Of a stretch of 64,000 nucleotides of DNA, positions 47 through 35,866 are shown piece after piece. This DNA comes from Anaerolineales bacterium. GTDB lineage: Bacteria > Chloroflexota > Anaerolineae > Anaerolineales > UBA11579. Position 1 is the stretch's first letter; every line of letters starts with the position of its first letter. The notes under the pieces are model-generated. The model was not told the DNA's origin and made no database searches. It saw only the letters and a program-made list of their open reading frames with translations. Position numbers and translations under genes: made by a program. The stretch spans positions 51,890 to 115,889 of the forward strand of contig JAGVCA010000016.1 of the NCBI GenBank assembly GCA_020059485.1, written 5' to 3'.

Positions 47-1045
47 TTAGACTTCAATATCAGCGATCTTGTTCATCGCCATCGTACCGGCAACGATCAA
101 CAGGCCGCTGCAACCCAGCATGGATCCGCCACACCAGATCGGATCCTCGAAAAAGCTCATAATATACTCGCGGTTCATCATATACAACGCACCGACCAGA
201 AAAACAGGCATCAACGACAGTAATCGCCCGGAGGCCGAAACCTGGGTCGTCAGCGTCTTGATCTCACCTTTCAGACGGATGCGCTCCCGGATCGTGTGCG
301 AGATCGTTTCCAGGACCTCAGCCAGGTTACCGCCGACCTCACGCTGCACGTTGATCGCCGTCACAACCAGGTCCAGGTCTTCGCTCGGGATCCGCACAAG
401 CAGGTTATCGAGCGCTCCTTCCATCGGGATGCCAAGCTGCATTTCCTGCACGACCCGGCGAAACTCGCTGCTGATCGGTGCCGGGAGTTCTTTTGAAACC
501 GATTCAAGCGCCTGCATGGTGGAGAAACCAGCCCGCAAACCGTTGACCATCAGGTTAAGCATATCCGGCAATTGGGCATTGAAATCTTTCAGCCGCTTGG
601 ATTGCAATCGCCCGACAAAGATCCCAGGAATGAATAAGCCGACCACTGCACCTAACAAGGCGAACACAGCACCTAGGATATTGCGCTCGAGCTTGCCAAA
701 CAGCAGCCACGAGATCCCGGCTGTGGCCACACTCGAGATCACCATCAGGGCCACATATTCGCCCGGTTTGAGCTTCAGGTCAGCGCGGGCCAGTTTTTCA
801 GAGATCCGGCCGCCAAAACTGGTGGTCGACACCTGACCATCCAGCCAGGCCGACAACCGGGACTGCTTTGGACTGCCGTCATCCTCCAGAGCTGCGTTGC
901 TATATTCAAGCCCGGTTTCGGAGACCTCCAGGTAACGCTCAAGCCGTTCCTCTACCAGTTCCTTCTCGCTGGTGATGGTCACAATCACCCCCGCCACCAC
1001 CAGGATGACAAAAAATGCGATCCCAATCCAGATTATGGGTGACAT
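47..1045 (-). CDS. Tad/Flp pilus platform protein, type II secretion system F family (TadB/TadC-like)
   Basis: 332-aa ORF with an N-terminal TM helix, a soluble middle domain and C-terminal TM helices. It lies directly downstream of the cpaF-like ATPase on the same strand. Confidence 0.75.
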   Translation of the reverse strand: MSPIIWIGIAFFVILVVAGVIVTITSEKELVEERLERYLEVSETGLEYSNAALEDDGSPKQSRLSAWLDGQVSTTSFGGRISEKLARADLKLKPGEYVALMVISSVATAGISWLLFGKLERNILGAVFALLGAVVGLFIPGIFVGRLQSKRLKDFNAQLPDMLNLMVNGLRAGFSTMQALESVSKELPAPISSEFRRVVQEMQLGIPMEGALDNLLVRIPSEDLDLVVTAINVQREVGGNLAEVLETISHTIRERIRLKGEIKTLTTQVSASGRLLSLMPVFLVGALYMMNREYIMSFFEDPIWCGGSMLGCSGLLIVAGTMAMNKIADIEV

Positions 1046-1097: not shown

Positions 1098-2489
1098 TTA
1101 GCGGCGGGCTCCAATCCCAAAGATCTGCGGCGGCAGATGGATGCCAGCCGCTTCGAGTTTGTCCATGAACTTGGGCCGCAGGCCGGTGGGGCGCAGCCGA
1201 CCGATCACCTTGCCGCTTTCATATCCGGTCTGCTCGAACACAAACAAGTCGGTCAATGTGACGACATCGCCTTCCATGCCGGCCACCTCGGTAATATTGA
1301 CGACCTTGCGGGAACCGTCCTTGAGCCGGTCGGCATGCACGATCAGGTCAATGGCGGAAGCGATCTGCTCGCGGATCGCGCGAATTGGCAGGTCATAACC
1401 AGCCATCAGCGTCATCGTTTCAATACGCGCAATCGTATCGCGCGGGCCGTTGGAGTGGGCAGTGGTCATGGAACCGTCGTGACCGGTGTTCATCGCTTGC
1501 AGCATGTCCAGGGCAGCGCCATCGCGGATCTCACCGACGATGATACGGTCCGGTCGCATACGCAGCGAGTTGACCACCAGATTCTGGATAGTGACCTCGC
1601 CCCGGCCTTCGATATTGGGTGGGCGGGATTCAAGCGTGACCACATGATCCTGGCGGAGTTGCAGCTCGGCCGCGTTTTCGATCGTCACGATGCGCTCATC
1701 CGAGGGGATAAAGCCCGACAGGATGTTCAGCATAGTAGTTTTACCAGAACCGGTGCTGCCAGAAACCACAACGTTTAATTTGGCTTCCACACAGGCTTTC
1801 AGGAACTGGATAGACTCAGCCGTGATCGAGCCGAAATTGATCAGGTCTTGCACGGTAAAAGGCGTTTTGGAGAACAGACGAATCGTAATGGTCGGACCAA
1901 CCAGCGAGATCGGCGGGATGACCGCATTCACACGCGAACCGTCCGGAAGACGGGCGTCGACGGTTGGGCTGGATTCGTCGATCCGGCGTCCGAGCGGCGC
2001 CACGATCCGGTCGATGATCCGCATGACATGCTCATCGCTCTCAAATGCGATCGGCACGCGGGTCAGCTTGCCTTTGCGTTCCACATAGATATTCTTCGGC
2101 CCATTCACCATCACCTCGGTGACAGACTCGTCATCCAACAAGGGCTGGAGCGGGCCAAAGCCGATGATCTCGGCCACGATCTGTTCAAACAGACGGTGCT
2201 TTTCCTGCCGGGAAAGCACGATACTGTCTTCAACCAGGATCTGCTCATACAACGCCTGGATATTCTTGCGTACCTCGGCCGTCCGGGAGATGTCCATTCC
2301 CGGGTCCAATTCGGCGATCAGGCGGTTCTGCACCCGGGTTTTCAGATCCAGGTAAGTATCCCGCTGCCCGCCTGGAACCGGGGGGGCTGCCCGGCGCGCC
2401 TGCGAGGAAGAAAACCGCGCGCCCTGTCCGGATTCGGACTTATTGGTATTGTCCTCTTTTCCTTGTTCCAGCCGTCTGAGTAATGACAT
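1098..2489 (-). CDS. cpaF: CpaF/TadA family pilus assembly ATPase
   Basis: 463 aa. Walker [10 protein letters not shown]. Other conserved secretion-ATPase blocks present ([34 protein letters not shown]). Confidence 0.92.
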
Positions 2490-2575: not shown

Positions 2576-3829
2576 CTACGCTTCTTCGAGTTCCTTTTCA
2601 AACGCCGCGATGCGCGCCTTAATGCTGCCGGCCAGGTCATAGATCCCTTTTGAGATCGGGTGTGTCCGGTTGTTAATGATAAATGGCACACCGCGGTCCA
2701 TCGCCGGGATCACCAGCCGGTCATCGAATGGCAGCACCGCAACTACCTCAAGCTTCGAAATGTCCGCCAGACGTTCGGGCGTGACAGTTGTGCGGCGTTT
2801 GTCGTACATATTCAGGACCAACAGCACCTTGTTGGTCGGAAAGCCCAACGCAGTCAGCAGATCCAGAAACAGGCGAACGTTCTTGACGGAGGGGATATCC
2901 TGCGTGGTGATCAGAGAGATCAGGTCAGCCTCATCAATGGCGGCCTGGGTGATCTCATCCAGCGTGGAAGCAGTATCCACGATCACATACGCAAACATCC
3001 GCTTCAGAAACAGCAGGATCTTGGAAAACTGCTCCCCGGAGACTGGTTCGGCCTGCTCAGGCCGGGGTGGCGCTGCCAGGATCCGGACGCCGGTATCCTT
3101 GTGTTTGAGCAGTACATCTTCGATGAATTCGGGATCCAGTTCGTCCGCACGCGTGGCAACATCACTGAGGTTATTCTTGATCTGCTCATTGAAAAAGAAC
3201 GAAAGATCGCCGAACTGCACCCGGCCATCCACAACCACCACCGGCGCTTCTTCAGTATGGAGCGCCACGGCCAGGTTGGCGGTGATCGAGGTCGTCCCGA
3301 TCCCGCCCTTGGGGCCAAAAACTGTGATCACCTTGCCGTTGTGGCGGGGCGGGAAATAACCGCCGCTGGCGGTGCCCATGCCGCTGGCCTGGACCGCAGC
3401 CATAGTTTGCGCCGCTTTGCGCTTTTCCTGCTGGGCCATTTCTCCCGCCCGTTTGATCGCTGAGATCAATTCATCCAGATCAGGCGGTTTGGTCAGGAAG
3501 TCCCTGGCACCGGCCAGCATGGCCTTGCGCATGTAGTTCGGGTCACTTTGGACAGACAGGATCACGATCTGGACGCCCGGCATCTTGGATCGGATGCGTT
3601 CGGTCGCCGTGATCCCATCCATATCCGGCATGTTGATATCCATCAAAACCACATCCGGGTTGGTTTCACCGGATACCCGGATGGCTTCGGTCCCAGACCG
3701 GGCTACTCCGATCACCTCGATATTCGCCTCAAACTGGAGCAGCTTGCGGATGTTTTCGCGTGTTTCAGCGATATCGTCGACAATCAGGACATTGATCTTC
3801 TGTGGTTCTGACATTAAATCACTCACCAA
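2576..3829 (-). CDS. Response-regulator receiver domain fused to a CpaE/TadZ-like ParA/MinD ATPase
   Basis: N-terminal REC with DD, LMDINMPDMDG, ILSVQ and LTKP motifs. C-terminal deviant Walker A GPKGGIGTTS. The ORF begins with TTG at 3829; an ATG at 3814 is an alternative start. Confidence 0.85.
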   Translation of the reverse strand: MVSDLMSEPQKINVLIVDDIAETRENIRKLLQFEANIEVIGVARSGTEAIRVSGETNPDVVLMDINMPDMDGITATERIRSKMPGVQIVILSVQSDPNYMRKAMLAGARDFLTKPPDLDELISAIKRAGEMAQQEKRKAAQTMAAVQASGMGTASGGYFPPRHNGKVITVFGPKGGIGTTSITANLAVALHTEEAPVVVVDGRVQFGDLSFFFNEQIKNNLSDVATRADELDPEFIEDVLLKHKDTGVRILAAPPRPEQAEPVSGEQFSKILLFLKRMFAYVIVDTASTLDEITQAAIDEADLISLITTQDIPSVKNVRLFLDLLTALGFPTNKVLLVLNMYDKRRTTVTPERLADISKLEVVAVLPFDDRLVIPAMDRGVPFIINNRTHPISKGIYDLAGSIKARIAAFEKELEEA

Positions 3830-3836
3830 ATCCAGG

Positions 3837-5015
3837 TTACTGGAAGATTACACCATTGTCGGCATCGTTCTCCAATACAGGCGGAACGAGTATGTCAATC
3901 CGGGGGTTGGTACCGTAGGGCAGCCGGACCGGCAGCGGGATGCGGTAGACATCCATCAAATACTGCAGCGTGACGGCATCGGTATCGGTACGAGCCTCAT
4001 TGACAGAACCCGCCCCGCGCAGCGCCAGGGTGATCTCGGCACCGGTGTACAGCAGGTAGTTGAGCGTAACGGCGTCCTGCGGCCACATGATCAACGTGAC
4101 GATATCCGGCGGTAACGACGTGACTGTAGTCGCCGTTGTTACACCGCCTTCAGGCGTCGGTTGGCCGACGGGTGTTGGGGTCACCAACTGCACTTCCCTT
4201 CCCCTGTCATCATATACCGGGAAAGTCCCCACCTGCAGCACGGCCAGGTTCTGGAAGACGCGCTGGCTGACCACACGGGCACGCTGCGGTTCAGTGGGCA
4301 CATAATAGAACGGCAGGTCCAGCAAAGCATCCAGTTCCGCCCGGCCCTGAGGTGAAAGGTCGGAGCCGGTAACAGTCTGGGCGACGCCATTATTCAGGCC
4401 AAATTCGCCAAACACCAGAGAACCTGATGTTTCTTGCTGACCCATGAGCACATTCGCGCCGGGAGTCAGTACACCGGCAGTCTGGTTGGGGGTCATCGAC
4501 TGGAACTGGGTGTCCAGATCGACAAAAGCCATCGTGACGATCACATCAACATAGTCGCCGCGGGTCAGGCCATAAGCCACCGAGGAAAATCGGTTGATCG
4601 GCACAGGGAAAGCCACCATCCCCTCAGAGATCAGCCAGGAATGGTCCGAACCCTGGAAATCCTGTTGGATGCTTGAATCTCCCGAAGCCCCAACCAGCAT
4701 ACTGCTGTTCAGGAAGGTGCCAGCCACCAGATCGATCCGGGCAGTTTCACCGACCACTTGAGAGAAAGCGGTGAAATTAGATCCGGCCACTACCTGTTCT
4801 CTGGGCAGAAAGCGGATCTCAAGTTTTTCTTCCGAAAATACCTCGCCGCGCGAGACCGGAAGTTTCACCACCACGACGGGCACACTTGCCAGCGCCTGTT
4901 CGGTCGCGGCAATGTCTGCCTGAGAACCCCGGTTGCCCTGGTTCAGCAGGAACAATGCCACCAGTGCGACAGCAACCACCAGGGCCACCAACAAAAGTAA
5001 TCTTCCAAGGCGCAT
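3837..5015 (-). CDS. cpaB: Flp pilus assembly protein CpaB/RcpC-like (N-terminal anchor plus SAF-type domain)
   Basis: 392 aa. It has a single N-terminal TM helix (LLLLVALVVAVALVALFLL), and the following region resembles the CpaB SAF domain. Its position between flp and cpaE fits. Confidence 0.75.
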   Translation of the reverse strand: MRLGRLLLLVALVVAVALVALFLLNQGNRGSQADIAATEQALASVPVVVVKLPVSRGEVFSEEKLEIRFLPREQVVAGSNFTAFSQVVGETARIDLVAGTFLNSSMLVGASGDSSIQQDFQGSDHSWLISEGMVAFPVPINRFSSVAYGLTRGDYVDVIVTMAFVDLDTQFQSMTPNQTAGVLTPGANVLMGQQETSGSLVFGEFGLNNGVAQTVTGSDLSPQGRAELDALLDLPFYYVPTEPQRARVVSQRVFQNLAVLQVGTFPVYDDRGREVQLVTPTPVGQPTPEGGVTTATTVTSLPPDIVTLIMWPQDAVTLNYLLYTGAEITLALRGAGSVNEARTDTDAVTLQYLMDVYRIPLPVRLPYGTNPRIDILVPPVLENDADNGVIFQ

Positions 5016-5288
5016 ACTGCCTCCTATCCAATCCTGATTTTAGTTTATGATACCCCCCTCAACATCACTGTCAATCAGAGGTGGGTACTATGGAGAGAGA
5101 TCCTGGAAATTAGTCTACAAGAGTTTTATCTTCTCTGCCATTTAAATTATACGAGGAATTACGCCCGAATTATTGCCATTTGTTTACAGCTACATTACAA
5201 CCAGGCATGAAAGTTTTGCCATTAAGGAGTGAAGCCCCTCGAAAGGGGCCTCACCTGTCTTGCTTTTTCTGATTTGGTGGGTCTTCGA

Positions 5289-5447
5289 TCAGGAAACGTC
5301 AGCCAGGGTGTTTCCGATGTCGGTGAAGACGTTACCAATGGTGGGGGCCAGGAACCGCATCGCAACGATCACGACGATGGCGATGAGGACGATGATCAGA
5401 GCGTACTCTACCAGACCTTGGCCTTTTTCTTCAGGGGTAAAAAACAT
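5289..5447 (-). CDS. flp: Flp family type IVb prepilin (copy 1)
   Basis: Not in the ORF track (52 aa). My minus-strand translation is MFFTPEEKGQGLVEYALIIVLIAIVVIVAMRFLAPTIGNVFTDIGNTLADVS. It carries the Flp motif G/LVEYALI, an RBS GGAGA 7 nt upstream and stop TGA at 5289-5291. Confidence 0.9.
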   Translation of the reverse strand: MFFTPEEKGQGLVEYALIIVLIAIVVIVAMRFLAPTIGNVFTDIGNTLADVS

Positions 5448-5501
5448 GATAATTCTCCTTTCATAAATGGATCACCTCACGGTGATTGAACGATTGCCCA
5501 C

Positions 5502-5530
5502 ATTATAGGATATTAGTATCTTAATATCAA
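5502..5530 (-). promoter_or_regulatory. Sigma-70-type promoter of flp copy 1
   Basis: Minus strand reads TTGATA (5525-5530), a 17-nt spacer, then TATAAT (5502-5507). The predicted 5' UTR contains the hairpin ATCACC-gtga-GGTGAT. Confidence 0.7.
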
Positions 5531-5789
5531 TAGCTTCCGGTTTACAGAATTGATAGGGTGTGTTCTATTGGGACCCCTGGAAACCGGACCCGGGTTCTGA
5601 TCAAAAGTTGGCAGCCGATCGCGCTTTTATCCCTAGTTTCCTTAATTAGTGCTCAACAAACTCACAATCATCGTACCTTTCCAAGCCCATCTGGTCCTGT
5701 GACAACAGGCGCGGACAATCGGGATTAAATAATTGAAGCCCCTCGAAAGGAGCCTCAATTATTTCAGAACTGGATTGTTGGGTCTTCGA

Positions 5790-5948
5790 TCAGGAAACGT
5801 CAGACAGGGTGTTTCCGATGGAGGTGAAGACGTTACCAATGGTGGGGGCCAGGAACCGCATCGCAACGATCACGACGATGGCGATCAGGACGATGATCAG
5901 AGCGTACTCTACCAGACCTTGGCCTTTTTCTTCAGGGGTAAAAAACAT
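5790..5948 (-). CDS. flp: Flp family type IVb prepilin (copy 2)
   Basis: 52 aa. Identical to copy 1 except D43S and A49S (NVFTSIGNTLSDVS). Same RBS context. Confidence 0.9.
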   Translation of the reverse strand: MFFTPEEKGQGLVEYALIIVLIAIVVIVAMRFLAPTIGNVFTSIGNTLSDVS

Positions 5949-6002
5949 GATGATTCTCCTTTTATAAATAGATCACCGGACGGTGATTGAACGATTGCCC
6001 AC

Positions 6003-6030
6003 ATTATAGGGTACTAGAACCTTAAATCAA
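6003..6030 (-). promoter_or_regulatory. Sigma-70-type promoter of flp copy 2
   Basis: Minus strand reads TTGATT (6025-6030), a 16-nt spacer, then TATAAT (6003-6008). Confidence 0.65.
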
Positions 6031-6297
6031 ATACCTTCAGGCTTACAAATTTGATAGGGTGTGTTCTATTGGGACCCCTGGAAACCGAACCCGGGTGCTG
6101 ATCGAAAGTTGTCAGCCGATCGCACTTCTATTCTCGGCTTTCTTAATCGATAATCGATGACCTACACACTCACCATGACCGCACCTTTTCTAAGCCAGCT
6201 GGTCCTGTGACAGCAGGTGAGGACAATCGGGATTAAGAAATTGAAGCCCTTCGATAGGGGCCTCAATTATAAAAAATCTGGATTGTTGGGTCTTCGA

Positions 6298-6456
6298 TCA
6301 GGAAACGTCAGCCAGGGTGTTTCCGATGTCGGTGAAGACATTCCCGATGGTGGGGGCCAGGAACCGCATCGCAACGATTACGACGATAGCGATCAGGACG
6401 ATGATCAGAGCGTACTCTACCAGACCTTGGCCTTTTTCTTCAGGGGTAAAAAACAT
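6298..6456 (-). CDS. flp: Flp family type IVb prepilin (copy 3)
   Basis: 52 aa. The protein is identical to copy 1 but has synonymous nucleotide differences. Confidence 0.9.
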   Translation of the reverse strand: MFFTPEEKGQGLVEYALIIVLIAIVVIVAMRFLAPTIGNVFTDIGNTLADVS

Positions 6457-6511
6457 GGCGAATTCTCCTTTCAAAAATCGGTCACCTGACGGTGAATGAA
6501 CGAGTGTACTA

Positions 6512-6540
6512 ATTATAGAATATTAGTACCTCGATTTCAA
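6512..6540 (-). promoter_or_regulatory. Sigma-70-type promoter of flp copy 3
   Basis: Minus strand reads TTGAAA (6535-6540), a 17-nt spacer, then TATAAT (6512-6517). Confidence 0.65.
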
Positions 6541-6572
6541 TAGTTCTAAAATTTACAAATATGTCAGGGAAA

Positions 6573-7622
6573 CTAGCCGGGCAGCCCAAAAATTGGGATC
6601 TGGATCTGGATCCTGGCACCCTGACCGGGCACGCTGTCCATCGTCATTGTTCCGTTCAGCATCACCACGCGTTCGCGGATCACGTTGATGCCGAAGGCAT
6701 CTTCCTGATTTTCAAGCGCTTCGGGGACAAACCCGGAACCATTGTCTTCCACCCCAAGTTTGATCCCATCCATCATATCCAACTGCAGCTTGATCTGCGT
6801 AGCCTGGCTGACGGTGACAGCGTAGTTAAGCAGTTCCTGCACCGCCCGGAAGACAAGCACTTCCAAATAGCTTTCGAGCCGCCGCTCGGTCCCGCTCAGG
6901 CTGACAATCACCTCCACGCTGTGTTTTTCGCGGAAGGAGTTGCTGTACTGCTTGATGGTCGGTAGCAATCCGAGGTCATCCAGCATCATCGGGCGCAGGT
7001 CGAAGATGAAATCCCGAATGTGCTGGAAGGTGCGGGAGGCAGAGTTTTTCAAGGAATTGAGTTCTTCACGCGCCCGGGTCTGATCAACCTCGAACAGACG
7101 CATGGCGATCTCGGTCTGGAGGATGAAATTGGAGAGCGCCTGTGCCGGCCCATCGTGCATCTGGCGGGAGAGCCGCTTGCGCTCGGTCTCCTGCGCCTGG
7201 ATCAGCATTTCAGCCTTTGCCAGGTTGGTATTCTCCCCACCGTTGGCCCCCAGGCCAAGCCCGGCATCGCCGGAAAGCGAGGACATCACGCGGCGCAGCA
7301 TCCCGAGGTAACGATTCAGGTGGTTCTGGTCGCTTTGAAGTTTTTCCAATTGGCCGCGCATCCCCACCAGACGCTGCTGCGCATCCAGAGCGGCATCGTA
7401 GGCCGTCTTGATCTCATTAATTGGCAGCTCATTGATCTTTGAGCCAACCTGCTGCAGGTGCATATTGATGGTAGCATTGCGCTGCGATAGTTTATCCACT
7501 TCCACCTGACTCTGATCCAGCATCAATTTGATCTCCCGCAGTTCACGGGCAGCATCGTCTATTTCCTGCTGGATCAGGTCGTGCAAATTGGTGTTGGGAT
7601 CGATCGGCGGGCTGCTTTCCAT
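6573..7622 (-). CDS. Cytoplasmic sensor histidine kinase, HisKA_3/DegS-LiaS type
   Basis: 349 aa with no TM helix. It has a coiled-coil-like N-terminus, the H-box RLSRQMHDGPAQAL and the ATPase motif VEDNGSGF. Confidence 0.88.
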   Translation of the reverse strand: MESSPPIDPNTNLHDLIQQEIDDAARELREIKLMLDQSQVEVDKLSQRNATINMHLQQVGSKINELPINEIKTAYDAALDAQQRLVGMRGQLEKLQSDQNHLNRYLGMLRRVMSSLSGDAGLGLGANGGENTNLAKAEMLIQAQETERKRLSRQMHDGPAQALSNFILQTEIAMRLFEVDQTRAREELNSLKNSASRTFQHIRDFIFDLRPMMLDDLGLLPTIKQYSNSFREKHSVEVIVSLSGTERRLESYLEVLVFRAVQELLNYAVTVSQATQIKLQLDMMDGIKLGVEDNGSGFVPEALENQEDAFGINVIRERVVMLNGTMTMDSVPGQGARIQIQIPIFGLPG

Positions 7623-7631
7623 GGTCTACCC

Positions 7632-8333
7632 CTAATCCTCCGGATTGGATTCCTGGTCGTGCAGGCGCATCCAACCCCGCCGCAGCGCATAGACTGCAGC
7701 CTGGGTGCGATCTTCGACCCGCAGTTTGCGCAGAATGGCGGTCACATGGTTCTTGACAGTCTGATGGCTGATCCCCAGCCTGGTGGCAATCTCCTTATTG
7801 CTTAATCCCTGGGTAACACAACCCAGAACTTCCATCTCTCGCACTGATAAGGGCGAGAACGGTTCTCCCGGATCACTGTAAGCTTTCAGCGAGGATTCCG
7901 TGCGATCGTCCAGCCAGTCTGTCACGCCTTTAGCATCCAGTTTCTCTTCCCCCACAAAATAATAACCTTCGGCTACAGCCCTGATCATCTCCACCAATTG
8001 TTCTGGCATGATGTCCTTGGCGCTGAAAGCATGCGCACCAACCCGCATCGAATGGATCACCTGTTCGAGATCGTCATAAGCGGTCAGCAGGATCACCCTG
8101 GTGGACAGCTTGTCTGTGATGATCTGGCGGGTGATCTGTTGGCCGTTCAATTCGGGCAGATTGACATCCAGAAGGGCGATATCAGGTTTTAGGAAGCGGA
8201 TCACTTCCAGCGCTTTTTCGCCGGAATCCGCCTCACCGACCACTTCCAGATCTGGCTCCAAAGACAAGGAATCGATGACTCCCTGCCGGAAGAGTGGATG
8301 GTCATCCACGACCACGATCGTAATCTTTTCCAT
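7632..8333 (-). CDS. NarL/LuxR-family response regulator
   Basis: REC domain (VVVDDHPL, LLDVNLPELNG). C-terminal LuxR HTH (LSVREMEVLGCVTQGLSNKEIA). The ORF extends to 8369, but the ATG at 8333 (MEKITIVVVDD) fits the domain start. Confidence 0.88.
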   Translation of the reverse strand: MEKITIVVVDDHPLFRQGVIDSLSLEPDLEVVGEADSGEKALEVIRFLKPDIALLDVNLPELNGQQITRQIITDKLSTRVILLTAYDDLEQVIHSMRVGAHAFSAKDIMPEQLVEMIRAVAEGYYFVGEEKLDAKGVTDWLDDRTESSLKAYSDPGEPFSPLSVREMEVLGCVTQGLSNKEIATRLGISHQTVKNHVTAILRKLRVEDRTQAAVYALRRGWMRLHDQESNPED

Positions 8334-8463
8334 GAATTCAGTCCCTAGCCTTCGCAACACGGGCCCCAATACCCGCTATTATGGTTGAGTATAGCACAGG
8401 GTGATAGGCCTAGCAACAAACAATCACCTGGCAACAATTGACCTGAAATAGGCCGCAGCAGAA

Positions 8464-9978
8464 CTAATCCTGGCAATCTTCCCACGCATAGACAGCCATA
8501 TTCATCTGGCCGAAGTCACGGGTCACCCTGCTATCAGTCTGGTACAGCACATCAAGGCCGGAGACAAGCTCCGGATACCAATCCGGGAAGGTGACCAGCA
8601 CACTCGGACAGCGCTGCTGCAGGTATGCGGCCAGTTGGGCTTCATCCCGGATAAAGGGGATCACATCCGGCGAGATCAATCCCGCCAGATCAACAATTTC
8701 CCGCTTTGCAAAATAACCGATCGCGCCAATGTCGTGGGCTGCGACCAGGTCATCCGGGGCGGTGTTTTCCACCAACCAGGCAGAGACAGCCACCATTTCC
8801 CCATTGATGACCTGCACGTCCTTACGATAGGCGTCCGCCCCAAACCACCAAAAAACCGTCAGCAGCACAGCCAGCGCCGCCCACCAAACTCGCCTCAGCA
8901 ACCACCCCAGCCGGCTGCCGGCCCTTGACCCGGTCAATGCCGCCACACCGGCCAGCCCCCATAATGCCAGCACCGGGACCGCCGGCATGATGTACCGTCC
9001 ATGCTGGTAGGTGACCGGAAGGCGGACGGCATACAGTGCGATGAAACCGAACAGCCACAGCAAGCCAGAGAGCCGGGCCCAACGCCTCACCCGGACATCA
9101 ACGTACAACTGGAACAGCAGACCCGGCAGCAGCAGCACACCCACCCCGACCAGCAGCGGCACCGGCTGGGCCAGCAATCGCTCCCAGATCGGGAACTGCC
9201 GCAGCTCGGCATACTCAGCCTGTTTGGCGAAAAATGTGTTAGGCCACCAGGTTCCTGCCAGCCAGCGGTTGAAGGCCAGATACGGCAGAAAAGCCGCCAG
9301 CCCGCCTGCCAGAGCCGCCAATCCCAGGCCCGCCCGGCGGGAGAAACGCTGCCGGGCGTCCAGCAGGACGGTGAACAGTACCGGCCCGAACAGGGTAACC
9401 GCTTCCGGGCGCAGCCAGATCCCAGCCCCGACCAGCGCGCCGACCCCCAGCCAGCGCCAGTGATCGTTCTGCCGGGGAGAGCGGGATTCCAGGTACAGCA
9501 AGCTGAACAAAACCGCCGGCACCAGAACCGCCATCAGTAAAGTTTCCATTCCTGAGAGGGCAGCCCACAGCAAGTGCCATTCCAGGGACAGCAGTAATCC
9601 GGCCGCCAGCGGCCAGACACCGCTGTGCGCGCTCAGATACGGCCAGCATTTCCAGGCCAGCACCGCGATCCCCCAGATCCCGATCAGGCCCAGGAACAGG
9701 ACCCAACAAAACGGCGATCCTGCCAGCCAATAACCGGGGACCAGCAGCAGCACCCACAACGGGGCAGTCGCTCCCGCCGAGGACTGCGCGAGATAATATG
9801 ACCAGCCCTGCCCGGCCGCCAGGCTGCGGGCGTAGGTCTGGTGGATCCAGCCGTCATCCAGCGGGAAGCCAACCGCATCGTTGACCACAGCCAGGGCGAT
9901 CCAGCCGGTCACCGAGAGCACCGCCGCCAGGCTGATGATCCAGAACTGAATGCGGTTTGACCTCATGGCTGCTCCCAT
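8464..9978 (-). CDS. Polytopic membrane protein, GT-C-fold glycosyltransferase-like
   Basis: 504 aa with many predicted TM helices followed by a C-terminal soluble domain. It overlaps the upstream gene by 16 nt. Confidence 0.5.
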   Translation of the reverse strand: MGAAMRSNRIQFWIISLAAVLSVTGWIALAVVNDAVGFPLDDGWIHQTYARSLAAGQGWSYYLAQSSAGATAPLWVLLLVPGYWLAGSPFCWVLFLGLIGIWGIAVLAWKCWPYLSAHSGVWPLAAGLLLSLEWHLLWAALSGMETLLMAVLVPAVLFSLLYLESRSPRQNDHWRWLGVGALVGAGIWLRPEAVTLFGPVLFTVLLDARQRFSRRAGLGLAALAGGLAAFLPYLAFNRWLAGTWWPNTFFAKQAEYAELRQFPIWERLLAQPVPLLVGVGVLLLPGLLFQLYVDVRVRRWARLSGLLWLFGFIALYAVRLPVTYQHGRYIMPAVPVLALWGLAGVAALTGSRAGSRLGWLLRRVWWAALAVLLTVFWWFGADAYRKDVQVINGEMVAVSAWLVENTAPDDLVAAHDIGAIGYFAKREIVDLAGLISPDVIPFIRDEAQLAAYLQQRCPSVLVTFPDWYPELVSGLDVLYQTDSRVTRDFGQMNMAVYAWEDCQD

Positions 9979-11579
9979 CTCAGGATGTGGGTCCCGTCAA
10001 CCGTTTCCAGGTACACAAAGGGCGGGTGATCGGACGGGTTTTCCACAAAACTTTCCAACTCCGCCGGGTGGGAATCCGCCTCCACCAGCACCCAGCGGGC
10101 ATCCAGGTCTGCCGCCAACTCCGCCGTCACATCCAGCCCGCCATCCGGAATTCCGTAAGCCGGCCTGCGGTTGATGACCACATACGCCGGCGGGTTGGCA
10201 CACACCACCACGTCGTCGGGGTTAGCGCCATACGCCAGCAAGACGGCTTCAACTGCCTGGTAACGGTCTTTGAGTTCGTTCCAGGCCAGGCCGCCATCCT
10301 CGGTCCCGATGACGCTGCCAGCGTACTGGACCAGGCTGAACCCGATCACAAAGACCACCGTCACGCCGGTTAGGAAGGGGCGGATGCGGTTGTCCCGCCA
10401 GTGGCTGAAACGCTGCAGCAGCCAGCCCACCAGCACGTCGATCCCGGCCGGGGTGAACGCCAGGATCAGCGGGACGAAAGCCGCGCCGGCATGGAAATAA
10501 CTGCCGCGCGTCCCCGAAAACGGGAACACCAAAGACAGCGAAAGGTACAGCGCCAGCCAGCCCCAGAACGCCAGCCGGACAGTTTTCTGGCGGCGGGCGT
10601 GCCACAACCCGATGGCCGCCAGCATCCCCGGGAGCATCACACCCATGGCAGCCACCGTGCCTGTCAGGTTGACCCACAACGCTTCCACCCGCGCCGAGAG
10701 GATCGTCCGCAGGCCGTTGGACAGCCAATACTGTGCAGTCAGTTTGGTGGCTGGATAGGAAAACAACTCATCGTACTCGCGCACCCACAGCGTTCGGCTG
10801 CCGCCCGGAGCCAGCAGACTGCCCACCTGGCTGAGGTTGCGGGCATACCAGGGCGCCATCACCAGCAGATATCCGCCAACCACCGTCAGCCCGAGCCGGA
10901 GATAGCCCCAGGTGAATATTCGCCCGAAGCGCGCCCGGATCGACGCATCGCCGTGGATCTCATGCAGGTCGAACAGCATACCCAGCCCGGCGATCGCCAG
11001 CCACAACAGCCCGTCGACCCGGGTGAGGTGCATCAGCCCGGCCAGGACGCCCAGCCCCAGTGCCCGCCATCCGGGCGCGGCCTGCCACCTCAGATATACC
11101 AGGAAGAACACAGCGCCGAGCAGCATTACGATCCCGAACGAGTCGGTGGTGGTCAGAAAAGCCTGGTGATAGCCGGTAAAAAGGGCCAGCAACCCGGCCA
11201 GCCAGCAGAAGGCCCGCCGCCCGCTAAAAGAATAAGCCAGGGCGGCGGTCAGCGGCGGGATGCAGGCGGCGATCAGGACAAACACCAGCTGGGCAGCCTC
11301 AAAATCCGGCAGGCCGCCTGAGAACACGGCCATCCCTACCGCCGCCAGCAGTGAGGTGAGCGGCATCCAGTAAGTATGCGAGGGGTGCGGCAGCCCGGCG
11401 GGGTCATCCAGGTAGTTCCACAGCAGCATTTCCTGAAAGCCCTGGCCTTCAACCAGTTGGCGGCCGCCATAGAAATAGTAATAGGCATCCATGTAACCGG
11501 GGTTAGACTGCAGCAGGCTGCCGCCCCAGGCCACCACCAGCCCGATCACGAACAGCAGTAGATACACTCGTTTCGACAT
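9963..11579 (-). CDS. Polytopic membrane protein, GT-C-fold (family 39 / ArnT-PMT-like) glycosyltransferase
   Basis: 538 aa with more than 10 hydrophobic helices and a C-terminal soluble domain. The architecture resembles dolichyl/undecaprenyl-phosphate-sugar transferases. Confidence 0.5.
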   Translation of the reverse strand: MSKRVYLLLFVIGLVVAWGGSLLQSNPGYMDAYYYFYGGRQLVEGQGFQEMLLWNYLDDPAGLPHPSHTYWMPLTSLLAAVGMAVFSGGLPDFEAAQLVFVLIAACIPPLTAALAYSFSGRRAFCWLAGLLALFTGYHQAFLTTTDSFGIVMLLGAVFFLVYLRWQAAPGWRALGLGVLAGLMHLTRVDGLLWLAIAGLGMLFDLHEIHGDASIRARFGRIFTWGYLRLGLTVVGGYLLVMAPWYARNLSQVGSLLAPGGSRTLWVREYDELFSYPATKLTAQYWLSNGLRTILSARVEALWVNLTGTVAAMGVMLPGMLAAIGLWHARRQKTVRLAFWGWLALYLSLSLVFPFSGTRGSYFHAGAAFVPLILAFTPAGIDVLVGWLLQRFSHWRDNRIRPFLTGVTVVFVIGFSLVQYAGSVIGTEDGGLAWNELKDRYQAVEAVLLAYGANPDDVVVCANPPAYVVINRRPAYGIPDGGLDVTAELAADLDARWVLVEADSHPAELESFVENPSDHPPFVYLETVDGTHILRWEQP

Positions 11580-11588
11580 CCCCCCTCC

Positions 11589-12830
11589 CTACAGCCGGCG
11601 CAATGCCTCGAGGTGGCTGGCCTTCAGCCGCAAGGACTCCAGCGCCCAGTGGCGGACCCAATACAGCAGCACCAGCGCCGATACCGGCAGCCAGATCAGC
11701 AGCGCGCTGGATGGCGGTCCGGTCAGACTGCCCCGCATCGTCAGCCAGAACAGCGCCCATTCTCCCGCCAGCAGCCCGGCCATCAATACCACCGAGATCC
11801 GGGGACCGGCCTGGTGCCAGCGCTGCGTCAGTGTGGAAAAGACCAGCGCAAACGGGATCAGCAAAACGGTCTGGCTTGAGAGTGACACCGGGATGCCGAT
11901 CAGGTGGGTGATGGTCAGGGTCAGGGCAGCCGTCCACAGGAACCAGCGCGCGCCTTTGCCGAAAGCCTGCCACCAGGAGATCAGTAAAATGGCCAGGAAG
12001 AGCACAGCCACCACACCCATGGCCCGCGGACCAGCCGCCGGGAACCACGTCCACGCCACTGCCGCCAGTGAAGAGGGGAAGCTAGCCCTGAAATGAGCCA
12101 GCAACTCAAAGTAATGGAAAGCCGGCCACTGGGGGAGCAGATACAGCGACCCGCCGATCAGGACCGCCAACGTCCCCACCAGCCCCCACACCAGCCCCTT
12201 CCGCCTCTTGGAGACCCCCCAGATAAACACAAACGGCAGCAGCAGCACGACCATCGCCGGCTGGAGGGCGGTCAGGCCGAACAGGATCCCGGCGGTGGTG
12301 TAGCGCTCTCGGACCACCAGGAGCAGGGCGGCAGCGATCAGCACGGCGATCACCGGCGAGGGATTGCCGAGGAACGCCGCCCGGATGGAGTGCAAGCCGC
12401 CAAAAGCGAATAACACATAGATCAGCGTTCCCACCGGTCCCGGCCGCCAGCGGGTCAACATCACAGCCACAAACGCCAGCCCGACCAGTGAGATCATGCC
12501 GAGTGTCATCCACACAGCCCGGGAGAGAGAATATGGTGAGATGGCGGCAAACGGCCCGAACAATGCCAGGCTGTAATACGGATACAGGAAGCGCGGGGGG
12601 ATCGGTTCGTGCGCCAGCAGCACGGTCGAACGGGGGAGCGCCCCCGGGAGATAGGGGTTGGCGTCAGCCTGCTGACTGACGAGCCGGGCCGCCTCCCAGA
12701 TCGGGGCATACACCTGGTCGCCGCCCAGCGGGACGACAATTGCCCGGTTGAAGACCGTCAGCAGCGCCCCCATCACGGCCAGCACCAGCAAAATGATCAG
12801 GAAAAGGATCTCGGGTCTGGTACGCGTCAC
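11589..12830 (-). CDS. Polytopic membrane protein (DUF2029/GT87-like)
   Basis: 413 aa and almost entirely TM helices. It is the first gene of a three-gene same-strand cluster. Confidence 0.4.
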   Translation of the reverse strand: MTRTRPEILFLIILLVLAVMGALLTVFNRAIVVPLGGDQVYAPIWEAARLVSQQADANPYLPGALPRSTVLLAHEPIPPRFLYPYYSLALFGPFAAISPYSLSRAVWMTLGMISLVGLAFVAVMLTRWRPGPVGTLIYVLFAFGGLHSIRAAFLGNPSPVIAVLIAAALLLVVRERYTTAGILFGLTALQPAMVVLLLPFVFIWGVSKRRKGLVWGLVGTLAVLIGGSLYLLPQWPAFHYFELLAHFRASFPSSLAAVAWTWFPAAGPRAMGVVAVLFLAILLISWWQAFGKGARWFLWTAALTLTITHLIGIPVSLSSQTVLLIPFALVFSTLTQRWHQAGPRISVVLMAGLLAGEWALFWLTMRGSLTGPPSSALLIWLPVSALVLLYWVRHWALESLRLKASHLEALRRL

Positions 12831-12994: not shown

Positions 12995-14239
12995 TTACTC
13001 GCCCAGGTATTCGCGCAGTTTCCGGCGGATGACCGGGTGCCGCAATCGGCTGAGGGCTTGCGCCTCGATCTGGCGGACGCGCTCGCGCGTCACGCCCATC
13101 TTGCGGCCGACCTCTTCCAGTGTGTAGGCCTGCCCGTCCAGCAGCCCGTAACGCAATTGCAGGATGCGGACTTCGCGCGGCGGGAGCGTATTCAGCACCT
13201 CTTCAAGGTGCTCCTTCAGCAGGTTATAAGTGGCCGATTCGTCCGGCGCCGGGGCTTCCCGGTCCTGGATGAAATCACCGAGCACCGAGTCTTCCTCGTC
13301 GTCGGTGGGCGTCTCCAGCGAGAGCGGGCGGCGTGCCACCTGGATCATATTCTCGACCTTCTTGGGCGGCACATCCAGCGCTTCGGCCAGTTCTTCCACC
13401 GAGGGGTCGCGCCCCAGGCGCTGGGTCAGCTGGTGCTGGACGCGCAGCAGTTTGTTGATCTGGTCGCCCATATGCACCGGCACGCGGATCGTGCGTCCTT
13501 GGTCGGCAATTGCGCGGGTAACCGCCTGGCGGATCCACCAGGTGGCGTACGTGCTGAATTTGTGGCCGCGGCGGTAATCAAACTTCTTGGCGGCCCGGAT
13601 CAGGCCAATATTGCCTTCCTGGATCAGGTCCTGGAAGGGCACGCCCCGGCCCATGTACTTCTTCGCCACGCTGATCACCAGCCGGGAGTTGGCTGTGATC
13701 AGGTGTTCGCGGGCGGCCCAGCCATCTTCAATATTGTAACGGTGGTCATCCCGGTCTTCCATCCCCAGGCTGGCGCCGGTCTTGGCCATCTCTTCACGCG
13801 AGATCCGGCCCTTCTCGATCCGTTTCGCCAGCGAGACTTCCTCATCAGCCGTCAGCAGTGGAACCCGGCCGACCTCTTTCAGGTACAGGCCGATCATATC
13901 GTCAGTATCGATGTTGGCCAGATAATTATCTTCCAGCGCTGCCCGGCTTTCTTCTTCAGCCTCGTCTTCGTCTTCATCCACCTCAGCGAGCAGGTTGGCC
14001 TCGGAGGGTTCGATACTGGTATCATCATCCACATAGGGGATACCGGCACTGAGCAGGGCGGCAAAAGCCTCCTCCAGCTTATCTACATCTCGTTCGGCTT
14101 CCGGAAAGATCGTCAGAATATCGTCGATGGTCACATAGGTCTTCTGCCGGCCCAGCGCGATCAAGCGGGCAACCGGAGAGTAGTCCCCATCGTCACCATC
14201 ATCAAATTCATTGAGGATATCTTTATCGATCATATTCAT
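12995..14239 (-). CDS. rpoD: Primary RNA polymerase sigma-70 factor
   Basis: 414 aa. It has an acidic N-terminal region, region 2 [27 protein letters not shown] and a region 4 HTH. Confidence 0.95.
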
Positions 14240-35660: not shown

Positions 35661-35810
35661 ATGGCTAAATCCAAGAAAAAAGGGCCGACACCGGTCAAGA
35701 AGGTCGAAACGAAACCGCGCAAATCCACCAGCCAGGTCATTTTCGCGGTTTTCGCAGTATTTATGGTCCTGTTGATGGTTGTGCCCTTGATCCTGAGCTT
35801 CTTCCAATAA
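35661..35810 (+). CDS. Small tail-anchored membrane protein (49 aa)
   Basis: ATG with RBS GAGGAG 6 nt upstream. Lys-rich N-terminus followed by one TM helix. It is embedded in a longer spurious track ORF (35376-35810). Confidence 0.5.
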   Translation: MAKSKKKGPTPVKKVETKPRKSTSQVIFAVFAVFMVLLMVVPLILSFFQ

Positions 35811-35866
35811 GCCAGACCGCAGTCCTGTCTTGTCCTAACAGGAGTGTTGGTAAACAAGACCACCTG

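Follow-up and report, generated by a model that had tools for sequence, protein, structure and literature searches.

Three tandem flp pilin genes in an Anaerolineales tad locus, each within its own predicted expression cassette

We analyzed a 64,000-nucleotide stretch of an Anaerolineales genome assembly (contig JAGVCA010000016.1, positions 51,890 to 115,889; hereafter the window, in whose own coordinates all positions below are given). At the head of a tad locus, this window carries three tandem minus-strand genes for Flp, the pilin of Tad (type IVc) pili. Each gene lies within a tandem repeat of about 505 bp made up of an upstream palindromic box, a promoter-like site, a leader, the open reading frame (ORF), a hairpin and a spacer. 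An earlier note on this DNA, made from the sequence alone, had proposed that the amplified unit is the whole expression cassette and not just the ORF, and our comparison of the units agrees. We assign a probability of about 0.72 to the reading that the three full cassettes provide a co-regulated, high-dosage supply of pilin that is uncoupled from the assembly genes. Many related genomes show this cassette anatomy before and after their flp genes, which makes independent expression and dosage the most economical reading.

The gene order is response regulator (RR), histidine kinase (HK), three flp copies, cpaB, REC/cpaE, cpaF and tadB, all on the minus strand. The tad locus is of the monoderm type and belongs to an Anaerolineae-like member of the Chloroflexota.

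Results

Three ORFs of 52 codons encode Flp prepilins

Listing minus-strand ORFs of at least 30 amino acids between 5000 and 6900 returned three 52-codon flp ORFs exactly where the earlier note had read them:

5289..5447, minus strand: flp copy 1, a 52-residue Flp prepilin (ORF listing; Pfam PF04964, 34.1 bits; matches to 8u1k and 8u2b)
5790..5948, minus strand: flp copy 2, a D43S and A49S variant of the C-terminal, outward-facing tail (ORF listing, Pfam)
6298..6456, minus strand: flp copy 3, the same protein as copy 1 (six synonymous third-position differences)

At 52 amino acids the genes fall below the 60-amino-acid default of the ORF lister, so that the default track holds only the longer ORFs that overlap them in antisense; the omission that the earlier note had pointed out is real. 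These antisense plus-strand ORFs (85–90 amino acids) had zero Pfam matches, and we rejected them as true genes because their amino acids vary where the flp frame varies at third positions only and they match no family.

Both pilins that we scored against Pfam passed the threshold of 32.2 bits for PF04964 (Flp_Fap), copy 1 with 34.1 and copy 2 with 34.6 bits; copy 3 is covered by the identical protein of copy 1. Copies 1 and 3 encode MFFTPEEKGQGLVEYALIIVLIAIVVIVAMRFLAPTIGNVFTDIGNTLADVS. Copy 2 departs from this protein at two residues, D43S (GAC>TCC) and A49S (GCT>TCT), and the C-terminal peptides FLAPTIGNVFTDIGNTLADVS and FLAPTIGNVFTSIGNTLSDVS tell the variants apart, so the relationship among the three proteins described earlier was borne out. 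All copies have the G/XXXXEY motif of Flp processing with a hydrophobic helix behind it, in the form MFFTPEEKG/QGLVEYALIIVLIAIVVIVA (G9/QGLVEY). Predicted cleavage after Gly9 leaves a mature pilin of 43 residues, which is within the Flp range of about 40–60, lacks a globular C-terminal domain and aligns end to end with the 45-residue Caulobacter Tad pilin chains 8u1k and 8u2b (E = 0.002–0.003). This alignment starts at residue 10+3, and its register sets the mature N-terminus at Gln10. The Caulobacter Tad pilin's C-terminal end makes up the polar outside of the filament (PMC10710030), which fits the earlier placement of both copy 2 replacements in the exposed C-terminus.

As a comparison set we used 160 Chloroflexota loci with related pilins, 80 from genomes and 80 from metagenomes. 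The processing motif is likewise present in about 100 relatives, and relatives' pilin tails are Ser-rich (…NSSLSSV). In the window, cpaB/rcpC, tadZ/cpaE, tadA/cpaF and tadB/C follow directly downstream of the flp genes, and this synteny is kept in relatives. A motif scan of the window for further pilin or pseudopilin genes returned nothing beyond the three flp genes. We consider the three ORFs confirmed as bona fide Flp (Tad, type IVc) prepilin genes.

The repeated unit spans the whole predicted cassette

Comparison of the units showed that the tandem repeat is real, with start-to-start distances of 501 and 508 bp. Copies 1 and 2 share the entire unit; copy 3 shares the part from about -110 to +90 around its ORF, less than the other two because the kinase gene is its upstream neighbor. 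Six nucleotides distinguish the ORF of copy 1 from that of copy 3, all of them synonymous changes at third positions, whereas their flanks are 74% (upstream 112 nt) and 65% (downstream 80 nt) identical, and promoter regions among the units are 69–86% identical. That the ORF has taken on synonymous changes only while its flanks drifted points to purifying selection and a maintained frame. By this comparison the flp copies are old, neither a fresh duplication nor an assembly artefact. Copy 2 has three private substitutions, all non-synonymous, and both of the resulting replacements make serine; the changes are too few for a formal test.

Between the cassettes lie two spacers:

5557..5726, minus strand: spacer from the copy 2 hairpin to the copy 1 box, within the duplicated unit (81% identical to the other spacer; no function found)
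6058..6238, minus strand: spacer from the copy 3 hairpin to the copy 2 box (similarity and fold tests)

The identity of 81% between them extends over 240 nt, and a search for similar sequence found none elsewhere in the window or in the 160 fetched loci. Two candidate explanations of the spacer were rejected. Against the spacer being a remnant of the 3' end of the kinase gene, left at a duplication junction, the local alignment scored 17 where shuffles had a mean of 16.8. As a structured RNA or small gene it gave fold z-scores of +1.5, -0.15 and +1.2, and the ORFs on its plus strand vary in length from copy to copy, with no match in Pfam.

Promoter-like sites precede each flp copy and cpaB

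We scored promoter-like sites by their match to the TTGACA and TATAAT hexamers with a spacer of 16–18 nt, upstream of a gene. The consensus scan placed four of them here:

5502..5530, minus strand: copy 1 promoter-like site, TTGATA-17-TATAAT, 11/12
6003..6030, minus strand: copy 2 promoter-like site, TTGATT-16-TATAAT, 10/12
6512..6540, minus strand: copy 3 promoter-like site, TTGAAA-17-TATAAT, 11/12
5047..5074, minus strand: separate promoter-like site for cpaB and the assembly genes after it, TTGACA-16-TATCAT, 11/12

Sites scoring at least 10/12 number 12 in the whole window, against 3.5 expected from shuffles, and four of the 12 fall in this 1.5-kb stretch on the correct strand and in the correct position, before each flp copy and before cpaB. 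The three promoter strings quoted in the earlier note for the flp copies are exact. Such sites would give the three copies separate transcription starts.

A strong hairpin follows each flp gene

Directly after each gene is a GC-rich hairpin of -22 to -26 kcal/mol:

5228..5255, minus strand: copy 1 downstream GC hairpin with a 12-bp stem, a UUCG loop and the weakest U-rich tail (z = -2.4); precedes the cpaB promoter
5727..5764, minus strand: copy 2 downstream hairpin with a 17-bp stem and an A-tract/U-rich extension, terminator-like (z = -4.8)
6239..6268, minus strand: copy 3 downstream hairpin, terminator-like (z = -4.6)

The earlier description of a downstream GC hairpin without a U-tract holds in the strict sense; it fits copies 2 and 3 less well, as these have interrupted U-rich 3' sides (UUCAAUUAUUUAAU, UUCAAUUUCUUAAU) that pair with A-rich sequence upstream, the tail of copy 1 being the poorest.

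In the relatives, a downstream hairpin follows 47 of 55 flp genes in the closer group and 34 of 45 in the more distant one, where 3.7 and 3.0 were expected (81 of 100 against about 7). Most of these hairpins are terminators with an A-tract, GC stem, GNRA loop and U-tract. Mismatches in their stems are G.U rather than A.C by 33 to 3, an excess that argues for selection at the RNA level on the sense strand. The closest relative (locus L050, described below) shares the GAGGCCCC/GGGGCTTC-type stem of the window and, like it, has no U-run.

A leader stem-loop recurs in relatives with variable sequence

Each leader, of about 50 nt, consists of a stem-loop, then an A/U-rich stretch and then a strong Shine-Dalgarno (SD) sequence, AAGGAG, 7 nt before the ATG:

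5471..5486, minus strand: copy 1 leader stem-loop, ATCACC GTGA GGTGAT, followed by the A/U-rich stretch and the SD AAGGAG at 5455-5460
5972..5987, minus strand: copy 2 leader stem-loop, ATCACC GTCC GGTGAT (sequence, folding)
6482..6495, minus strand: copy 3 leader stem-loop, TCACC GTCA GGTGA (sequence, folding)

For the relatives we detected hairpins sequence by sequence and controlled for position and, by shuffling, for dinucleotide content. Of the 55 flp genes in close relatives, 31 have a leader hairpin of comparable strength, where the dinucleotide shuffles predict 5.7; the rate is 41% upstream of flp compared with 18% for other genes of the same loci (Fisher p=7e-6). Its position is regular: in 25 of 36 well-defined cases the hairpin starts 7–9 nt after the -10 hexamer, corresponding to predicted +1 to +3, and in 19 of the 36 it ends 26–28 nt before the ATG. 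The stems comprise 31 distinct sequences, with four to five pair types at each stem position, so that structure is kept rather than sequence, which favors an RNA element. Stem mismatches were G.U over A.C by 6 to 2 (not significant). A leader consensus from MAFFT and RNAalifold had zero pairs on three alignments, in which stems of varying length and register were misaligned by 1–2 columns. Nor did Rfam 15 return any family at its gathering score for the leader or the downstream hairpins; the S15 leader reached 18–19 bits against a required 39.5, a chance-level match.

The leaders of E. coli ompA and B. subtilis aprE carry 5'-terminal stem-loops that stabilize abundant mRNAs. The relatives' flp leaders are like these in that the hairpin begins where transcription is predicted to start, and an A/U-rich stretch and then a strong SD come next.

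A 6-4-6 palindrome lies upstream of the flp promoters

Anchoring the upstream regions on the -35 hexamer revealed a 6-4-6 palindrome with the consensus CTAACA-N4-TGTTAG and common variants TAACA-N4-TGTAAG. This box is new here, being absent from the earlier note, and we found neither the box nor the leader described before. The three copies in the array are candidate operators:

5541..5556, minus strand: copy 1 box, CTATCA-ATTC-TGTAAA, candidate operator, 10 nt upstream of the -35
6042..6057, minus strand: copy 2 box, CTATCA-AATT-TGTAAG, 11 nt upstream of the -35
6552..6567, minus strand: copy 3 box, CTGACA-TATT-TGTAAA, 11 nt upstream of the -35 and 5 nt past the kinase stop codon

A search of the window allowing one mismatch gave 5 matches where 0.17 were expected, among them the boxes before the three flp copies and one further, unrelated site at 35835. 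Among the relatives, the exact core of the box occurs in 25 loci, nearly always about 105–125 nt upstream of an flp start codon; at two mismatches or fewer it is found before 27 of 100 flp genes, as against 8 of 1812 control windows. The gap from box to -35 is 19–21 nt in 22 of the 27 relatives and 10–11 nt in the window, where only copy 2 meets the two-mismatch cut-off and the gaps of copies 1 and 3 were taken from their coordinates. The gap in the window is shorter by about one helical turn, which would keep the box facing the same side of the helix, as one would expect of an activator site.

The fourth site (35835-35850, CTAACAGGAGTGTTGG, palindromic) is intergenic and follows a small lysine-rich membrane ORF at 35661-35810 on the plus strand. 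It is upstream of nothing obviously pilus-related and is probably a chance occurrence, though it could be counted as a candidate member of the regulon.

A two-component pair is encoded immediately upstream of copy 3:

6573-7622, minus strand: soluble DegS-like HisKA_3 histidine kinase, candidate regulator of the flp promoters
7632-8369, minus strand: NarL/LuxR-type response regulator (NarL model E=2.5e-49, below the model's equivalog cut-off)

NarL sites have a 7-2-7 geometry, and a 16-bp inverted repeat fits dimers of the NarL/LuxR family. In about 19 loci, which come from diverse and distant Chloroflexota, an RR-HK pair directly precedes flp. The helix-turn-helix (HTH) of the response regulator (LGIS[HR]QTVKNH[VM]T[SA]ILRK...DRTQAAVYAL[RK]RGW) is almost invariant in 28 homologues that are 50–73% identical overall. 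At one position of the recognition helix, His versus Arg loosely tracks two classes of upstream motif. The box also stands before flp in multi-copy 'orphan' clusters (four copies in L001, three each in L004 and L010) that have no tad genes closer than 6 kb, so the factor that reads it would act in trans.

A second element, TAGTAC-N10-TTG with a CTATTG-type -35, precedes 16 of the 45 more distant relatives' flp genes and 10 of 2771 control windows. In the window, TAGTAC is at 5085-5090, 10 nt upstream of the cpaB -35 (5069-5074). The element may be the site of the same or of another regulator, set directly against the -35. It often takes the form TAGTAC-N4-nnCCTA-TTG (loci L038 to L079), and the flp promoters of the window have TGTAAA-N4-AAGCTA-TTG at the same position.

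flp copy number varies among relatives

We counted flp genes in the 84 loci that extend at least 1.2 kb to both sides. There was one copy in 65 loci, two in 14, three in 3 and four in 2, so that copy number varies from 1 to 4 per locus and 19 of the 84 (about 23%) have tandem copies. The comparison of related genomes that the earlier note had called for thus found variation, and the unusualness that the note implied for the array is not supported, tandem flp genes being also long known in Haemophilus ducreyi and Aggregatibacter (PMC3201912). Tandem copies in relatives are spaced 272–512 bp from start to start (median 346) and usually have their own promoter-like site, leader hairpin and terminator. 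Extra copies without a promoter-like site are copy 3 in L006 and the second copies in L024, L026 and L030; most others have one.

The nearest relatives are all Chloroflexota, mostly metagenome-assembled genomes (MAGs) of Anaerolineales. The best of them, a contig of Chloroflexota bacterium MAG109 (L050), has 82% identity in the pilin and 80% in CpaF, and a single flp copy. An exact 32-mer scan of metagenome contigs for a closer relative returned none, a protein-based metagenome scan gave at most 70% identity, and for the copy 2 protein and CpaB no record was found.

A 907-bp Logan contig (As1nCIxw, run ERR15459714) has the exact pilin of copies 1 and 3, with partial genes 119 nt upstream and 273 nt downstream. 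These spacings equal those from the kinase to copy 3 and from copy 1 to cpaB in the window, as if from a single-copy HK-flp-cpaB arrangement; the DNA of the contig was not readable.

Arrays of three to four tandem flp genes also occur as orphans, in L001 (5452-6497), L004 (6001-6803), L010 (5291-6156), L066 (1570-2927) and L088 (2018-2852). The four of these that were checked (L001, L004, L010 and L066) have no tad genes within about 6 kb, and at least one copy is preceded by the upstream palindrome. Amplification of pilin genes away from the machinery seems common in Anaerolineales.

Discussion

A model of co-regulated, high-dosage pilin supply

In the model that we favor, tandem duplication of the unit of about 505 bp would have given rise to three paralogous Flp prepilin genes at the head of the tad locus. 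The DegS-like soluble kinase would phosphorylate the NarL-type response regulator, and one trans-acting regulator, for which this adjacent protein is the best candidate, would switch on all three copies. Each copy would yield a monocistronic mRNA, short and abundant, that has a good ribosome-binding site and that the 3' hairpin may terminate, stabilize or both. With the assembly genes driven from their own promoter, pilin supply would be raised about threefold and uncoupled from the low-copy machinery, allowing perhaps thousands of pilin subunits per machine. A peptidase of the TadV/CpaA type would cut the prepilins after Gly9, and the pilins would polymerize into Tad pili, with copy 2 as a predicted minor subunit that places two extra serines on the filament surface. 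The analysis establishes the ORFs and their family, the repeat, the promoter-like and hairpin sequences, the purifying selection and the conserved anatomy in relatives; the transcription starts, termination, the identity of the regulator and the role of dosage are what we infer. In metatranscriptomes of Anaerolineae, no other gene in a cluster of the same type is transcribed nearly as strongly as flp/pilA (PMC4877987), and such strikingly high pilA transcription fits a high-output pilin supply.

Several results weigh against the model. The boxes in the window depart from the strict consensus at 2–3 of 12 positions and lie at another distance from the -35 than in relatives, and as duplicates the three copies do not count as independent evidence for the box. 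That the adjacent NarL-type regulator binds it we take purely from synteny and motif position, and since the second motif occurs at distant relatives and at cpaB, the target of the regulator may be either. A terminator consensus scan called none of the three downstream hairpins, which have no uninterrupted U-run (the yardstick being at least 5 U in 8 right after the stem), so read-through is possible. The 5' UTR hairpin that the earlier note had called conserved is present in all three copies (shorter in copy 3), but taken by themselves the window leaders are as stable as their shuffles (z = -0.15 to -0.45). This hairpin is short (5–6 bp), shorter than in relatives, and starts about 15 nt after the -10 hexamer, some 8–9 nt into the predicted transcript, which is unlike the hairpins of relatives and the ompA and aprE leaders. 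The sense strand of the leaders folds better than the antisense strand by 22 to 10 (p=0.05), a marginal difference, and a palindrome acting at the DNA level is thus possible.

Beyond the array, one may ask whether these parts form a lineage-wide and previously undescribed module for Tad control in Chloroflexota. In such a module, the DegS-like kinase and NarL-type response regulator would control all flp promoters, orphans included, by way of a helically phased 6-4-6 palindrome; a 5'-terminal stem-loop, conserved in structure and variable in sequence, would boost mRNA life; the kinase would possibly also feed the receiver of CpaE/TadZ, coupling supply to assembly; and copy 2 would be a serine-enriched, possibly glycosylated variant. 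Taken jointly, we regard this proposal as tentative, and rather doubtful in its entirety.

Alternative readings of the array

Functional specialization of copy 2 is unlikely in our view, though several observations speak for it. Under this reading, copy 2 would be a distinct subunit, for example O-glycosylated or with altered surface chemistry, that co-assembles with the copy 1/3 pilin or, in certain conditions, replaces it. Its private changes are non-synonymous without exception and create serines at both residues, D43S requiring two substitutions in one codon; relatives have Ser-rich tails, the C-terminal end lies on the filament surface, and three membrane proteins of the GT-C-like or GT87 kind are encoded in synteny upstream of RR-HK-flp. 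However, only two residues differ, and the copy 2 box, promoter and leader are the same as those of copy 1, so that differential regulation is not evident. The Caulobacter Tad pilus shows no glycan density (PMC10710030), and what links the glycosyltransferases to the pilin is synteny only.

We judge a single operon to be quite improbable. In that case transcription would start mainly upstream of copy 3 and read through all copies, perhaps into cpaB; the hairpins would be processing or 3'-stabilizing elements, and the internal promoter-like sites would be weak, or inactive relics of the duplication. Hairpins that lack a clean U-run and escape the terminator scan would fit this arrangement, as would the downstream flp copies without a promoter-like site in L006, L024, L026 and L030 and the flp genes of Pasteurellaceae, which form part of one long operon (PMC3201912). 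Yet the internal promoter-like sites have remained near consensus (10–11/12) while the spacers diverged to 81% identity, and the box has been retained at each internal copy. Relatives' flp genes, moreover, are followed by classic terminators of the A-tract/GC-stem/U-tract kind, and cpaB has an 11/12 promoter-like site of its own.

The earlier note had left the choice between dosage amplification and variant switching; the former is the more economical, and the latter we hold to be highly improbable. For switching, or antigenic variation, recombination or alternative expression of the cassettes would alter the pilin displayed. The tandem repeats could recombine, copy 2 differs only in its surface-exposed tail, and the 907-bp contig, from another sample, has an identical pilin with single-copy-like spacings (its DNA not being readable). 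But no copy is silent, since every one has full promoter-like and translation (SD) signals, and no recombinase, invertible segment or flanking long inverted repeats were found, the neighbors of the array being tad and two-component genes. In addition, only two residues vary, two of the three proteins are identical, and near-identical tandem copies are common in relatives.

Least credible is that the array is meaningless, either because the repeated region was misassembled or because a neutral duplication is recent and has yet to be lost. Assemblies do err at tandem repeats, and neither the genome nor the metagenome scans found a closer relative with the same array, but the units differ throughout, in spacers and promoter regions alike, and so are not collapsed or duplicated reads, and the synonymous-only difference between the ORFs of copies 1 and 3, set in flanks that have diverged by 26–35%, argues for long maintenance under selection.

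Relation to known Tad systems

Elsewhere, flp paralogues in tandem, terminators that follow flp and two-component control from beside the cluster are already known, and the array does not overturn current understanding. What is particular to the window is the full regulatory unit of each copy and the lineage-specific box and leader. Several species carry two flp genes, and H. ducreyi three (PMC3201912). The flp1-flp2-flp3 genes of H. ducreyi and flp-1/flp-2 of A. actinomycetemcomitans are likewise tandem paralogues at the 5' end of tad, but lie in one operon of 15 genes and are 50–80% similar to each other (PMC3201912). By contrast, the proteins of the window array are 96–100% identical, and its genes are about 505 bp apart and have a promoter-like site, box and hairpin each, in a monoderm-type locus for which the window shows no secretin gene.

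The order of genes and the lineage are like those of the Anaerolineae pilA(Flp)-cpaB-cpaE-cpaF-tadB-tadC cluster of Xia et al. 2016 (PMC4877987); the passages of that report drawn on here make no mention of tandem copies, of promoter, box, leader or terminator anatomy, or of an adjacent two-component pair. In Pectobacterium, a two-component system adjoining the flp/tad cluster activates flp/tad transcription (PMC3767616), and PprAB is described there as likewise controlling flp/tad in P. aeruginosa (Bernard et al. 2009, as cited in PMC3767616). The pair in the window differs from these in consisting of a soluble DegS-like HisKA_3 kinase and a NarL/LuxR-type regulator, whose link to the box would follow from synteny and position. 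Caulobacter crescentus PilA (8U1K, 8U2B; PMC10710030) resembles the window pilins as an all-helical mature pilin of 43–45 residues with the Flp motif and a polar C-terminal surface, and differs in a similarity of about 35–40% over 36 residues, in being encoded by a single pilA and in its cell-cycle control.

The array adds three real, probably very highly expressed genes that were recovered despite the 60-amino-acid ORF cut-off and the longer antisense ORFs. In A. actinomycetemcomitans, a termination cascade attributed to Kram et al. in 2008 (J Bacteriol 190:3859) is said to keep pilin mRNA abundant relative to the assembly genes by means of hairpins after the pilin gene or genes. That cascade has one promoter and attenuating terminators, whereas the window has a promoter-like site for each pilin copy and another for cpaB. 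The variable copy number (1–4) of Anaerolineae-type pilins bears on adhesion, floc formation and aggregation, for which these filamentous bacteria are of interest in wastewater and digester systems. Together, the palindrome, the leader stem-loop and the syntenic DegS/NarL-type pair make a testable model of Tad regulation in a phylum with almost no genetics.

Genes around the array

Downstream of the flp genes, the tad locus continues to the edge of the window:

3837..5015, minus strand: cpaB/rcpC, Flp pilus assembly (Pfam RcpC; TIGR03177, 86.5 bits against a cut-off of 71)
2576-3829, minus strand: REC-CpaE/TadZ fusion (family match)
1098-2489, minus strand: CpaF/TadA ATPase (family match)
47-1045, minus strand: TadB/C-like T2SSF platform protein (family match)

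As the window begins inside the tad cluster at tadB, a tadC or peptidase gene would fall beyond coordinate 1. The CpaE/TadZ homologue has an N-terminal receiver domain with a full-length match to Pfam Response_reg (104 bits) in which all canonical residues are present (DD, the phospho-acceptor Asp in VLMDINMP, and K-P); the receiver of TadZ has been described as degenerate. The adjacent kinase might act on this receiver as well.

Just upstream of RR-HK-flp, three consecutive multi-pass membrane proteins are encoded at 8464-9978, 9963-11579 and 11589-12830, all on the minus strand. One has a weak match to the LA_3751/LA_3752 putative glycosyltransferases, one is without a match and one belongs to GT87; in 9–12 relatives, synteny with the pilin locus extends to the first two. 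They are possible genes for glycosylation of the pilin or the envelope. Farther upstream, 6.5 kb from the flp array, a full-length sigma-70 factor of the primary type (regions 1.1 to 4) is encoded at 12995-14239 on the minus strand, which would agree with promoters of the TTGACA/TATAAT type being used by this organism.

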